A stretch of DNA of 6,805 nucleotides from a virus (IMGVR_UViG_3300013934_000002:1-6805), one strand, 5' to 3'; shown: positions 3,807 to 6,805, numbered from the stretch's first letter. Numbers and translations are program-made. The notes: a model not told the origin generated them from the letters alone.

Positions 3807-5093
3807 ATGGCTCGTTGTTTTCGTTATGGTCTCTTCGTTCTGGCTGCTGTTCTATACAGCGTCCAAGTAAGTGCGGCACGTCAGGTAATCCCTGAGCCCG
3901 GTGAAGTTCAACGCGCATGGGTTCCAGGTGCTGGCCCTACTTCTTTTGTCGATTCCAGGGACTGGAACGCCACAGTTAGCACTCAGAGTGGCTCACGTGT
4001 TCAGCTTCCTGTTAATGGCAAGCGTTCATACGGCTGGCCAAAATGGGCCGGCGCAGCAAAGCAATTTGTGAAGAAGTCGCCTCAGCAGGCCGCTGCCGCT
4101 GCAGGTTTGGCTGGTGTTTTTGCTGCTGTCGATTGGGTCATGGATCAAGGGCAATTCAAGCGTCCCGGTGATGGCGGGGTTTGTTATCACGCCTATTACG
4201 GCGGCACGGGTATGGCTACCGCTTGTGAGTATGAATCTGCCGGAGATGCATGCCGTGCGCTCTACAGCATGAGCGGCATTAGCCATAAGGGGGCTGGCGC
4301 ACTTTCTGGGGGCTCATGTTATTACCATCACCTCACCAATGTGCCTTCGCTTGTTCAGTCTGGATACTGGAAAGAAGTAAATCCCGACCCTTCTACGCAG
4401 CCCCGTGTTCCCGTTACCGATTCCGAGATCGATAATCTCATCGATGGTATTACTGATCCTAACGTAGCGGCAGAGTCAGCCCCTTTCATTGAGCAGAATC
4501 TGCCCGGTTCGTTCGACTACCCCGATGGATTCGAATTTTCCGGCCCTCAGTCCGTTGACTTGCCGGGCGTAGTAACGACTAAAACGGACCCAGCCACTGG
4601 CAACACGACCACTACGGAAGTTCTTCCATCTGTGCAGTTCGAATATGGAACCAACCCGTGGTCGATTACGCCTACCGATAAGACAACGAAGAACACATAT
4701 GAGAATGGCCAAAAGACCCAGACCGAAGAGTCCGTTTCCACTGATCCCGTAAATAGTGGCGGTGTTTCTGTACAGCCAAAGCCTGTCGAAATTCCAACCG
4801 ATTGCGACTTTATGCCAACGGTCTGCAAGTTCATTGATTGGGTGAAGGAACCGTTTACCGAAGAGACTCCTGATTTTTCTGACCTTATTGAAGATGAGGA
4901 CTTTTCAGAGTCCATAACCATTTCAGGCAATGCAACTTGTCCAGCTCCTACCATGATCGAGACCAATCTTGGCTCTTTCGAATTTAGCTGGCAACCTGCT
5001 TGCACTTGGGCGGGAATGATTAAGCCGCTTGTTATCATTGCTGCGCTAATTGCAGCCATTTATATCAGTCTCGGCGTAGCGAGGTCGGAATAA
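3807..5093 (+). CDS. gIII: gpIII-like adsorption/minor coat protein (428 aa)
   Basis: There is a signal peptide MARCFRYGLFVLAAVLYSVQVSA/AR, a Cys-containing N-terminal domain and a Thr-rich linker (TTKTDPATGNTTTTE). The C-terminal block C..FEFS..C plus the TM anchor MIKPLVIIAALIAAIYISLGV resembles the gpIII C-terminus. GGGAG lies 8 nt upstream of the ATG. Confidence 0.85.
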   Translation: MARCFRYGLFVLAAVLYSVQVSAARQVIPEPGEVQRAWVPGAGPTSFVDSRDWNATVSTQSGSRVQLPVNGKRSYGWPKWAGAAKQFVKKSPQQAAAAAGLAGVFAAVDWVMDQGQFKRPGDGGVCYHAYYGGTGMATACEYESAGDACRALYSMSGISHKGAGALSGGSCYYHHLTNVPSLVQSGYWKEVNPDPSTQPRVPVTDSEIDNLIDGITDPNVAAESAPFIEQNLPGSFDYPDGFEFSGPQSVDLPGVVTTKTDPATGNTTTTEVLPSVQFEYGTNPWSITPTDKTTKNTYENGQKTQTEESVSTDPVNSGGVSVQPKPVEIPTDCDFMPTVCKFIDWVKEPFTEETPDFSDLIEDEDFSESITISGNATCPAPTMIETNLGSFEFSWQPACTWAGMIKPLVIIAALIAAIYISLGVARSE

Positions 5094-5374
5094 TGCCTGC
5101 GATACTTGTAACCATCGGCGTCTACATAATCTCCAGCGTCATCGCTAAGATATTCGTCGCCCTTGGTATCGGCGTTTTTACTTACTACGGACTGCTCTCG
5201 CTCGTTGAGCGACTTGTACAGCAGGTGCAACTTGCTTTTGGCGGTCTTCCGGGGCAAGTAACTCAAGTGCTTAGCATCGCCGGAATTCCTGAGGCACTTT
5301 CTATCGTCTGTAGCGCTTTCCTCACTCGCGCCTCTATCCAGGCTATTCAAACTTTCTTCGGGTCTCGCATATGA
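5093..5374 (+). CDS. gVI: gpVI-like minor coat protein (93 aa, multi-TM)
   Basis: It is coupled by TAATG to gIII and by ATGA to gI. It is a hydrophobic protein; GLPGQVTQVLSIAGIPEALSIV resembles the Ff gpVI QLPSDFVQGVQLILPSNALP region (recalled). Confidence 0.8.
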   Translation: MPAILVTIGVYIISSVIAKIFVALGIGVFTYYGLLSLVERLVQQVQLAFGGLPGQVTQVLSIAGIPEALSIVCSAFLTRASIQAIQTFFGSRI

Positions 5375-6396
5375 TCACCCTTATCACAGCTGTTCCAGGT
5401 AGCGGAAAAACTCTTTACTGCATTGGTTTGATCCTCAAGGCAGTCGAGGAGGGCAGACCCGTCTATTCCAACATCGCCGGCCTCAAAATCCCTCAGTGCC
5501 ACCCAGCTCCTGATGACTGGCGAGACACTCCCGAGGGTTCGCTCGTCGTCTACGATGAGGCTCAGCAGCCTCACCTATACCCATCCACCGCCCACCGTGG
5601 CGAGGTCAAGGATGAGCGTCTACGCCAGATGGAAGTCCACCGCCACACTGGACATGACCTTGTGTTCGTCAGCCAGTCTCCCAGCTTCCTGCATCACCAC
5701 ATCCGCAAGCTGGCCGGCGAGCACATCCACCTTTATCGCGCCTTCGGCGCCAAGATCGTCACGAAGTACACTTGGCAGCACACCGTCGACTCCCCCAACG
5801 ATCGAGGGGAGCAGGGCAGAGCTGACAGCGTTCCATGGAAGTTTCCCAAGGAGCATTTCCAGTACTACCAGTCGGCCACCATCCACACACACAAGTTCAA
5901 GATGCCAAAGAAGCTGGCGGCGCTCCTGCTGCTCATCGTCGCTGTTGCTGGCCTTGTCGTCTGGAACGCTGCAACCAATGAGAGCAGTCTGCTGACCGGC
6001 TCAGGTGCTGACATTCATCAACCTGTTGCCTCTGCAATGGCAGCGCCTTCTGAGCCCAGTGGTGTACGCGCAGCGGCCACCACGGGCCAGAAGAAAGCGC
6101 TGCCAGCTACGACAACCCTCTATGACTGGTCAGAAACCGAGACGGCCAAGCCTGTTGCCGGCTGCATTTACAACGCGACCCGCTGCCAGTGCTTCGACGC
6201 TTCCGGTTCGCTCTACGCGATGGCTCATGCACAATGCCTGTCCGTGGCATCGAACATGCTGCCGCGATCCATCAACGTAGGAGGTTCTAGCCGTGGGTCT
6301 TCAAGACAGGGAATGGTTTCAGGAGAGTCGCAACAATCGCTCATCGGCGCGAATCCATTCGCCGAGGCAGCAACCCCGGCGCCGGGGGTTCTTTAG
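5371..6396 (+). CDS. gI: Zot-like / gpI assembly ATPase (341 aa)
   Basis: It has Walker A AVPGSGKT at residues 7-14, Walker B LVVYDEAQ, a central TM segment LAALLLLIVAVAGLVVW, and a periplasmic C-x-C..C tail (TRCQCFDASGSLYAMAHAQC). Confidence 0.9.
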   Translation: MITLITAVPGSGKTLYCIGLILKAVEEGRPVYSNIAGLKIPQCHPAPDDWRDTPEGSLVVYDEAQQPHLYPSTAHRGEVKDERLRQMEVHRHTGHDLVFVSQSPSFLHHHIRKLAGEHIHLYRAFGAKIVTKYTWQHTVDSPNDRGEQGRADSVPWKFPKEHFQYYQSATIHTHKFKMPKKLAALLLLIVAVAGLVVWNAATNESSLLTGSGADIHQPVASAMAAPSEPSGVRAAATTGQKKALPATTTLYDWSETETAKPVAGCIYNATRCQCFDASGSLYAMAHAQCLSVASNMLPRSINVGGSSRGSSRQGMVSGESQQSLIGANPFAEAATPAPGVL

Positions 6397-6490: not shown

Positions 6491-6496
6491 TGGGGC

Positions 6497-6524
6497 GCTT
6501 CGCATAATGGAGATTATGAAATGA
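6497..6524 (+). other. dif-like site a: GCTTCGCATAA-TGGAGA-TTATGAAATGA (11+6+11)
   Basis: The XerC arm is identical to that of site b and lies within the 17-nt perfect direct repeat GGCGCTTCGCATAATGG (6494-6510 and 6679-6695). The centre matches TGTATA at 4/6. The XerD arm keeps only the inner TTATG. Confidence 0.6.
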
Positions 6525-6679
6525 TCCTGACTTACGAGCTGGTCGATAACCCCGGCTACGAGTACGAAGACGAAGTTCAGACCCAGTACGATGCGTGTGT
6601 AAGGCTTCAGTCAATCGAACCGTTTTGTGTTTGGTGGCAACTGACGGATGGCTCTGGTGAGCTTGTCATGTCGTCTTAG
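6521..6679 (+). CDS. 52-aa strongly acidic protein MILTYELVDNPGYEYEDEVQTQYDACVRLQSIEPFCVWWQLTDGSGELVMSS
   Basis: It is below the ORF-track cutoff. GGAG lies 8 nt upstream of the ATG, and GC3 is about 62% by hand count (higher in the first half). There are 10 D/E residues against 1 R. The ORF exactly fills the interval between dif-like sites a and b. Confidence 0.5.
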   Translation: MILTYELVDNPGYEYEDEVQTQYDACVRLQSIEPFCVWWQLTDGSGELVMSS

Positions 6680-6775
6680 GCGCTTCGCATAATGGGTAAC
6701 GTTACGTTTAATCGCGTCGGGAAGATGGTCAGCGGTCCCGGCGCGATTTAATGTAACGTTGATTATGCGCTGCGC
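6680..6775 (+). other. ~96-nt imperfect hairpin formed by two inverted dif-like sites (candidate ssDNA attP); truncated copy at 1-93
   Basis: 6680-6722 pairs with 6736-6775. By hand I count 34 Watson-Crick pairs, 2 G.T pairs, 1 T.T mismatch, a 2x2 internal loop, a GGGT-versus-G bulge and a 13-nt apical loop (6723-6735). CGCATAAT (6686-6693) pairs with ATTATGCG (6762-6769). Confidence 0.75.
6682..6712 (+). other. dif-like site b: GCTTCGCATAA-TGGGTAACG-TTACGTTTAAT (9-nt centre); partial copy at 1-30
   Basis: The XerC-type arm contains TTCGCATAA, as in the Pseudomonas/Xanthomonas-type dif recalled as GATTCGCATAA TGTATA TTATGTTAAAT. The XerD-like arm matches TTATGTTAAAT at 9/11 but lies after a 9-nt spacer instead of 6. 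Confidence 0.6.
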
Positions 6776-6805
6776 TATCGAACTCGAACCCTATGCCATC
6801 AAGAC
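6683..6805. repeat. Right copy of the exact 123-bp terminal overlap (= 1-123)
   Basis: Identical to 1-123. It contains second copies of dif-like sites b and c and the first 41 nt of the 83-313 CDS (ATG at 6765). Confidence 0.97.

Follow-up and report, generated by a model that had tools for sequence, protein, structure and literature searches.

The locus and its genome

The stretch of viral DNA considered here, IMGVR_UViG_3300013934_000002:1-6805 (the window, by which is meant the whole 6,805 nucleotides that were analysed), carries close to its 3' end a hairpin of 96 nucleotides (nt) in which two inverted sites resembling the bacterial dif site are paired with each other. The surrounding genome is that of an inovirus, with a gpII-type replication initiator and a Zot/gpI assembly ATPase amongst its genes (Table 1), and the hairpin is very probably the phage attachment site (attP) of a filamentous phage that lacks an integrase and uses XerC and XerD of its host, with the folded + strand as the substrate, as in a mobile element that exploits Xer to integrate (IMEX), of the CTX type.

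The two ends of the window (1-123 and 6683-6805) are 100% identical in a self-comparison, therefore the window is a circular genome of 6682 bp with an assembly overlap, which shows the hairpin twice (1-93 and 6683-6775) along with the start of the next open reading frame (ORF). In addition to the initiator and Zot, a G5P-like protein and a DUF2523 (gpVI-like) protein are identified by Pfam on the + strand, with PHROGs contributing a coat-like ORF of 46 amino acids (aa); orf52, orf65, orf218 and orf101 are given no function by either. A first-pass annotation, made from the sequence alone, had described an Ff-like gpII and a genome without an integrase. Both descriptions hold, as the initiator matches PF05144 and PF05155 and no recombinase or integrase is present among the 17 distinct ORFs that were scanned against Pfam or PHROGs. 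The gpII-type initiator defines the + strand as the coding (virion-sense) strand, and known inoviruses package their coding strand. Megablast of the whole window gives partial matches only, to Pseudomonas-associated inoviruses (a black-swan cloacal inovirus at 25% coverage and small pieces of P. aeruginosa inoviruses), and no named phage matching the window. These matches, together with the genomic relatives retrieved with Zot, suggest that the host belongs to the Pseudomonas group.

The hairpin

When 6670-6785 is folded with DNA parameters, as the first-pass annotation had proposed, 6680-6722 pairs with 6736-6775 through 37 pairs (34 Watson-Crick and 3 G.T), leaving an apical loop of 13 nt. 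The pairing is broken at three places: GGG at 6694-6696 bulges out on one side, 6684-6685 and 6770-6771 face each other in a 2x2 internal loop of the outer XerC arm, and the T at 6709 is mismatched with the T at 6749. The minimum free energy is -34.6 kcal/mol compared with -16.7 +/- 2.4 for 200 dinucleotide shuffles (z = -7.5), none of which folds as stably as the real hairpin. The site on the 3' limb, site C, forms the bottom strand of the folded site and has the canonical 6-nt spacing, and the surplus in the centre of the 5' site, site B, is what bulges out. The window contains 5 copies of the XerC-arm core, CGCATAAT, where 0.17 would be expected, and 0/200 shuffles reach that number.

Most of what the first-pass annotation had read from this region was borne out by the fold: the coordinates and sequences of both sites are exact when re-read from the window, and so are the two limbs, the 34 Watson-Crick pairs, the 13-nt loop and the unequal centres of 9 and 6 nt with the one-sided bulge falling in the centre. 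Its count of 2 G.T pairs is one short, because the T.G pair adjoining the bulge was placed inside the bulge, and its label of a forked hairpin fits poorly, the structure in the window being simple and unbranched.

Table 1. Positions of the hairpin, its parts and associated features in the window
Feature	Position	Strand	Evidence or remark
Probable attP(+) hairpin, complete: two inverted dif-like sites and distal stem-loop	6680-6775	+	Fold, covariation, strand asymmetry
Site B (5' site), predicted XerC-binding arm GCTTCGCATAA	6682-6692	+	Junctions of integrated relatives
Site B, 9-nt centre TGGGTAACG	6693-6701	+	GGG bulged, first T invariant; fold, alignment
Site B, XerD-like arm TTACGTTTAAT	6702-6712	+	9/11 matches to TTATGTTAAAT
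Distal stem-loop, 33 nt	6713-6745	+	Stem 6713-6722 with 6736-6745, loop 6723-6735
Site C (inverted 3' site)	6746-6773	-	
Site C, XerC arm GCAGCGCATAA	6773-6763	-	
Site C, centre TCAACG	6762-6757	-	
Site C, XerD-like arm TTACATTAAAT	6756-6746	-	
Site A, third (direct) XerC-arm copy GGCGCTTCGCATAATGG	6494-6510	+	Identical to 6679-6695; left border of cassette
185-bp cassette with orf52 (6521-6679)	6508-6692	+	Bounded by identical 17-nt XerC-arm repeats
gpII-type replication initiator	1611-2948	+	Pfam PF05144 (4e-49) plus PF05155
Zot/gpI assembly ATPase	5371-6396	+	Pfam; query for finding relatives

Integration junctions in relatives

A search with the Zot protein gave 25 viral contigs together with 4 genomic loci (individual relatives are given L numbers below), many of which are prophages with their right end at dif. 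In L002, L003, L004, L009 and L017 the right junction, attR, consists of the phage XerC arm followed by TCTATA-TTATGTTAAAT and then DNA that is not of phage origin. The same arrangement with TGTATA-TTATGTTAAAT is found in L027 (a metagenome-assembled genome of Pseudomonas sp.), L028 (the chromosome of Ectopseudomonas mendocina) and L036 (a metagenome scaffold from ENA that was found via the orf52 protein), and in L012, L013, L019 and L034 the XerD arm of attR, TTATGTTAAGT or TTATGTTAAAG, is off consensus by 1-2 outer bases. The left junction, attL, has the host XerC arm followed by the long centre of the phage (9-10 nt), the XerD-like arm, the loop and the inverted site, and is seen in this form in L002, L008, L017, L027, L028, L034 and L036. 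The first-pass annotation had suggested a search for prophage copies with hybrid dif junctions, and it is at canonical dif, with such junctions, that the relatives sit and not at another locus.

The homology to phage switches to host dif within TTCGCATAAT, an interval of 10-11 nt that spans the border of XerC arm and centre in the 5' site and includes the XerC cleavage position, which would lie between 6692 and 6693 of the window. All junctions are at this long-centre 5' site and none at the canonically spaced 3' site, which is what a folded + strand predicts. With the - strand folded, or with duplex as the substrate, the 3' site would be favoured.

The target site is also found empty. One host locus is occupied by three phage variants (L002, L008 and L017, with left flanks 96-99% identical), and a pattern joining the left flank directly to a full dif recovered three metagenome contigs (L031-L033; 207, 741 and 898 kb) in which GAGTTCGCATAA-TCTATA-TTATGTTAAAT directly joins the left flank to the right one, the flanks being 95-99% identical to those of the L002 prophage. 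Furthermore both states of one phage are represented, with the same gene set, by L034, which is integrated (in an NCBI assembly), and by L035, a contig with overlapping ends, the overlap being at the XerC arm.

Arrays of elements occur at dif as well. L028 holds a tandem array of two copies that are identical at 6209/6215 positions, L036 is a tandem prophage, and L009 contains a mixed array, in which a prophage of the window type has directly upstream of it a different inovirus (1-4528, with DUF2523 and with Zot at 3101-4237) that terminates in a XerC arm of its own.

The second copy in L036 is without the hairpin and without the two ORFs that follow it (~1.3 kb), and the junction between the copies (~10150) lies inside the 3' end of orf52, hence it is not a Xer junction and may have arisen by duplication, illegitimate or rolling-circle, or by an error of assembly. 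To the right of dif, L009 (from ~11380) and L017 (from ~8610) match the empty-site contigs for only 47-53 nt and then diverge into sequence that is common to both, which suggests another insertion next to dif in these two.

Selection on the folded + strand

The attP was rebuilt for 12 relatives by taking the XerC arm from attR and the remainder from attL, and the resulting sequences were aligned. RNAalifold finds 31 pairs in these 12 diverged hairpins, with 14 of them showing compensatory double changes, so that substitutions between the arms, for which the first-pass annotation had asked whether they are compensated, are indeed compensated. Paired cells make up 92.2% compared with 81.0% in column shuffles and 29-46% in slid registers, and 0/500 column shuffles reach the observed value on any of five measures. 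The covariation sits in the XerD-arm stem and in the distal stem; the XerC-arm stem never varies, with CGCATAAT invariant in 12/12 hairpins.

It is apparent that the pairing is kept on one strand in particular. The + strand is more stable than the - strand in all 12 hairpins, the + strand forms 44 G.T pairs and the - strand 2, and there is one A.C cell in the alignment with the consensus structure. A symmetric inverted repeat maintained as duplex would not show such an excess of G.T pairs on one strand.

The spacing of the two sites follows the same polarity. The centre of the 5' site is 8-13 nt in 14/14 hairpins, and when a 6-bp register is imposed on it only 2-4/11 XerD-arm matches are found, that is, no XerD-like arm. 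The centre of the 3' site is 6-8 nt, and exactly 6 nt in 11 of the 14. The surplus of the 5' centre takes the form of a bulge of 2-6 nt directly after the first centre base.

Distribution amongst viral contigs

Viral contigs were searched for a pattern of XerC arm, 7-12-nt gap, TTAYG, 35-65-nt gap, YRTAR, 5 nt and ATTATGCG, which gave at least 120 DNA stretches, nearly all of 4-10 kb, with at least 115 distinct hairpins. The asymmetry of spacing is imposed by this pattern, the results for strand, G.T pairs and orientation are not. Among the matches listed, 121/130 have their long-centre site 5' when read on the ORF-rich strand, this (+) strand is the more stable in 112/115 hairpins, and G.T pairs number 419 on the + strand against 38 on the - strand.

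To our knowledge CTXphi is the only case in which single-strand integration by Xer has been demonstrated; for a few enterobacterial prophages it has been inferred. The design is now seen in a large and diverse set of small inoviruses, with Pseudomonas, Ectopseudomonas and Halopseudomonas as the genera of the nearest genomic relatives. The best-known filamentous phages of this lineage, the Pf phages, reportedly rely in P. aeruginosa on integrases of their own (PMC7549136). In the full-text literature searched, coverage of which is incomplete, this hairpin family was not found described for phages of the Pseudomonas group. The hairpins add a new and seemingly large set of cases to a known mechanism, with the mechanism itself unchanged.

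The set of hairpins serves as a natural mutagenesis series of what is kept and what varies. What is kept is the CGCATAAT stem on both limbs, the first T of the centre, a bulge of 2-6 nt on the exchanged strand, a spacing on the other strand that is mostly 6 nt, and a distal clamp of ~33 nt. The design also offers a simple rule for where to draw the limits of a prophage at dif, a place at which neighbouring elements are merged by automatic tools.

Proposed mechanism of integration

In the packaged or rolling-circle + strand, 6680-6775 would fold so that the half-regions of the two inverted dif-like sites pair, producing a double-stranded mimic of dif with the XerC arm at its base and the XerD-like arm above. 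XerC and XerD would bind this mimic, with single-stranded DNA thereby serving as the substrate. The bottom strand would present the canonical 6-nt spacing, and in the top strand three additional bases would bulge out immediately 3' of the point of cleavage. The top strand would be cut by XerC at 6692/6693, between ATAA and T, and exchanged with the top strand of chromosomal dif. XerD would be unable to complete a second exchange because the centres share only the first base or two, leaving XerC as the only catalyst, and the single-strand joint would be converted into a prophage by replication. The left flank of such a prophage would be a dead hybrid site, with the XerC arm of the host, the 9-nt centre and the inverted partner locked in duplex, making integration irreversible. 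At the right flank a functional dif would be regenerated that could take further elements, leading to tandem and mixed arrays; arrays may in turn be needed for rolling-circle production of phage from the prophage. A dependence on XerCD is suggested by the position of the junctions at dif. What the sequences show is the structure with its covariation and strand specificity, the junctions, the empty target and the arrays; binding by XerC and XerD, the single-stranded substrate, catalysis by XerC alone, completion by replication and irreversibility are predictions.

The first-pass annotation had proposed that the mechanism of CTXphi operates in this phage, and this is supported by the dif junctions, the covariation, the strand-specific pairing and a matching fold of CTXphi attP. 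It had added that the central bubble restricts strand exchange in CTXphi. That part needs amending, as it is the lack of homology between the centres on the XerD side that blocks the second exchange (PMC4246890) and not the bubble itself.

Alternative explanations

A number of observations weigh against integration through the folded strand. The exact phage of the window was not found integrated and the junctions come from relatives, the closest of which, L002, covers 85% of the window at 84-94% identity. The XerD-like arms of several relatives match the consensus at only 7/11. Site C has a canonical spacing of 6 bp, its unsuitability as a duplex site resting on its centre (TCAACG compared with TCTATA) and on its absence from all junctions. 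The G.T asymmetry cannot tell + strand DNA from + sense RNA. A duplex XerC-first exchange at site B would, moreover, give an identical attL and attR, and a distant relative in Halopseudomonas (L030, L022) carries a direct 21-bp repeat only, so duplex-type sites exist in the wider group. It is conceivable then that site B alone is recombined by XerC in the double-stranded replicative form, as in phages of the VGJ type, with the hairpin irrelevant. This is very unlikely, given that the spacer of site B is 8-13 bp in the hairpins compared, with no XerD-like arm in the 6-bp register (2-4/11 matches), whereas the published centres are 6 bp for dif and 5-7 bp for attP2 of CTXphi, the attP of VGJphi is 29 bp, and the 12-bp centre of attP1 has been called unsuitable for Xer-mediated integration (PMC4246890). 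Nor would a duplex site account for an inverted partner that is present and covarying in every hairpin-type relative, for pairing that is selected on one strand only, or for the fact that site C, with its canonical spacing, is never the site of crossover.

The remaining alternatives accept the fold and give it another purpose. Packaging signals and complementary-strand origins must likewise fold on the + strand, and the hairpin might mainly be one of these with the dif-like arms secondary. The distal stem-loop is of fixed size (33 nt in 66/115 hairpins among the matches listed), and a G-G-A-n-A-A-T motif is conserved at the border of stem and loop while the stem covaries, features that the XerCD model neither requires nor explains. 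In integrative inoviruses of Xanthomonas, short hairpins rich in GC act as packaging signals (bioRxiv 10.1101/2023.12.30.573655). Nevertheless the invariant blocks are the XerC-arm cores on both limbs and the crossover maps to the base of the hairpin, so that packaging or origin as the sole function leaves the junctions unexplained. By eye the loop motif is also unlike the Xanthomonas consensus GGX(A/-)CCG(C/T)G, and no -35-like hexamer is present 16-18 nt upstream of it; the explanation is highly improbable. A role in RNA, as terminator or as stabiliser of the 3' end for the long + strand operon, would suit the position of the hairpin directly after the last + strand ORF (stop codon 6677-6679) and, with G.U pairs being good in RNA, would be compatible with the strand asymmetry. 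It is scarcely credible all the same, as there is no T-run after the stem, a terminator and promoter scan gives no match at the hairpin, Rfam gives none at the gathering threshold, and the dif-like arms on both limbs and the point of crossover would be left unexplained.

Comparison with known systems

Integration of CTXphi through attP(+) was reportedly worked out by Val et al. in 2005, and of the systems known it is the one that the hairpin of the window resembles most in anatomy and polarity, with two inverted dif-like sites that fold on the + strand. CTXphi attP1 is AGTGCGTATTA-TGTGGCGCGGCA-TTATGTTGAGG and attP2 is AATGCGTATTA-TACGCCA-TTATGTTACGG, the two lying ~90 bp apart in a hairpin of ~150 nt; XerC alone catalyses the exchange, replication completes it, and integration is irreversible as the site is masked in duplex DNA, with RS1, Ypfphi and CUS-1phi listed as relatives of the CTX type (PMC3089051, PMC4246890, PMC9226527). 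Folded with the same tool, CTXphi attP has its XerC arms paired in a stem, a bulge of 5 nt on the 5' side and a stem of XerD arms containing one mismatch, and its distal part is branched; attP1, with its 12-nt centre, is at the 5' side of the ctxB-sense strand. Both systems thus have the long centre in the 5' site (12 nt in CTXphi, 9 nt in the window) and the short one in the 3' site (5-7 nt in CTXphi (PMC4246890), 6 nt in the window), a bulge just 3' of the XerC cleavage point, a crossover at the XerC arm of the 5' site with a functional dif regenerated on the right (the XerD side), arrays at dif and no integrase. Even the XerD-arm variants of CTXphi, TTATGTTGAGG and TTATGTTACGG (PMC3089051), recur as TTATGTTGAGC and TTATGTTACGC in L006 and L011, and in L018 TTATGTTGAGC is paired with CTATGTTACGC.

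The differences are in dimension and in sequence. The hairpin of the window is 96 nt with 33 nt between the sites and is unbranched, whereas that of CTXphi is ~150 nt with ~90-100 nt between the sites and branched, and the centre in the window is almost fully paired apart from the 3-nt bulge. For its XerC arm the window has the Pseudomonas/Xanthomonas type, TTCGCATAA, and not GCGTATTA. The replication genes of CTXphi are annotated as rstA and rstB, setting it apart by annotation from the window with its PF05144/PF05155 (Ff gpII-type) initiator, and no CTXphi record is among the megablast matches of the whole window, which is accordingly not assigned to the CTXphi lineage (Affertcholeramvirus).

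The folded-attP mechanism has already been extended beyond Vibrio to CUS-1phi and Ypfphi (PMC3089051). In Ypfphi of Yersinia pestis and CUS-1phi of E. coli K1, compared here from the literature alone, attP likewise suits direct single-strand integration at dif (PMC3089051; PMC4246890), but the hosts are enterobacterial and the dif arms of another sequence. Phages of the VGJphi type and those of Xanthomonas (phiLf, Cf1c, XacF1) also use host XerCD with dif as the target and carry no integrase, and in VGJphi it is XerC that makes the first exchange with replication resolving the junction. The attP of these phages, however, is one duplex dif-like site only (29 bp in VGJphi), and their integration is reversible; the window has two inverted sites, and the 9-nt centre of its recombining site and the obligatory inverted partner set it apart from the VGJ-type IMEXs. 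Membership of the TLC type, which is XerD-first and carries XafT/DUF3653, was also rejected, as no ORF of the window matches DUF3653 and the crossover is on the XerC side. Lastly, the attC sites of integrons are likewise folded single-strand sites in which unpaired or extrahelical bases mark one strand and a single exchange is resolved by replication (PMC4792948). The likeness is one of working principle: their recombinase is IntI, they have no dif-like arms, and the site of the window does not belong to that family.

Gene cassettes bounded by XerC arms

Some of these phages hold one or two single-gene cassettes, positioned after the last core gene and before the working XerC arm. Each is delimited by XerC-arm repeats in direct orientation and inserted exactly at the border of XerC arm and centre. 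Three kinds were found: the 185-bp cassette of the window with orf52, which encodes an acidic product of 52 aa, a 243-bp cassette with a 73-aa ORF, orf73 (6792-7035 in L002, which holds two cassettes in series), and a 456-bp cassette with a 100-aa ORF, orf100 (6699-7155 in L007 and 6114-6570 in L015). The orf52 cassette is absent from the close relatives L003, L004 and L017, and in close relatives without a cassette the dif or hairpin centre comes directly after the same XerC arm. Only 7 database clusters contain orf52, yet amongst the backbones examined it is the last gene next to attR in ones as unrelated as L034/L035, L036 and L037, with the cassette common to at least three unrelated inovirus backbones. 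This suggests either mini-circles inserted by XerC or capture from dif arrays by rolling-circle read-through.

Site A, which forms the left border of the orf52 cassette, was considered as a working duplex attP and rejected. It has a 6-nt centre followed by TTATGAAATGA, at 6/11, no junction uses it, and its supposed XerD arm shares bases with both the Shine-Dalgarno sequence and the start codon of orf52, so that it is better read as a cassette border.

The distal stem-loop and the mobility of the module

The distal stem-loop has features of its own. GGAAGAT at 6720-6726 matches the G-G-A-n-A-A-T motif at the 5' border of stem and loop, which among the matches listed is present in 63/84 distinct distal segments against 3.8 expected from shuffles. 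It may be a second single-stranded DNA signal, for packaging, for priming of the complementary strand or for binding of a phage regulator. A reading of the motif as a -10 element was rejected by eye, there being no acceptable -35 hexamer 16-18 nt upstream. Taken with the cassettes, it is possible, if somewhat doubtful, that attP is more than an attachment site and combines Xer-based gene capture with a second function in its distal stem-loop; if so, the gene capture would be an integron-like economy run on host recombinases.

Another sequence that overlaps the hairpin is a 10-nt palindrome, GTAACGTTAC, with 3 copies in the window (890-899, 953-962 and 6696-6705) against 0.1 expected. Two copies are 63 nt apart in an operator-like position between a divergent 184-aa ORF and the + strand genes, and the third is inside the hairpin, in the centre and XerD arm of site B. 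The 184-aa ORF itself was not callable as a repressor, as it matches only families of unknown function. Among the matches listed, 29 have GTAACGTTAC in the hairpin, and for 24 of them the contig contains additional copies, compared with copies elsewhere in 7/116 of the matches without it in the hairpin. This co-occurrence probably reflects the linkage of adjacent modules, with exceptions in both directions, and was not taken as evidence of function.

That the hairpin can part company with its genome is suggested by L135, in which 6063-6156 is 100% identical to window 1-94 over 94 nt of hairpin in a phage that otherwise shares only ~11% of the window (~750 nt). Attachment modules therefore appear to move between phages.

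Other dif-like sequences near the prophages

In L027 (4420-4460) an inverted TTCGCATAA-TGTGAG-TTATGTTTAAC is found ~80 nt upstream of attL, and in L028 (100-143) TTCGCACATAA...TTATGTTAAGG lies directly upstream of attL; these fragments outside attL may be relics of earlier elements. The relative in Halopseudomonas formosensis, with a Zot that is 52% identical, has CAGTAGTTCGCATAAGGTATA as its 21-bp direct repeat (5450 and 12566 in L030, 6200 in L022), and the repeat has no inverted partner. Judged on these sequences, duplex-type and hairpin-type attachment sites coexist in this group of phages.

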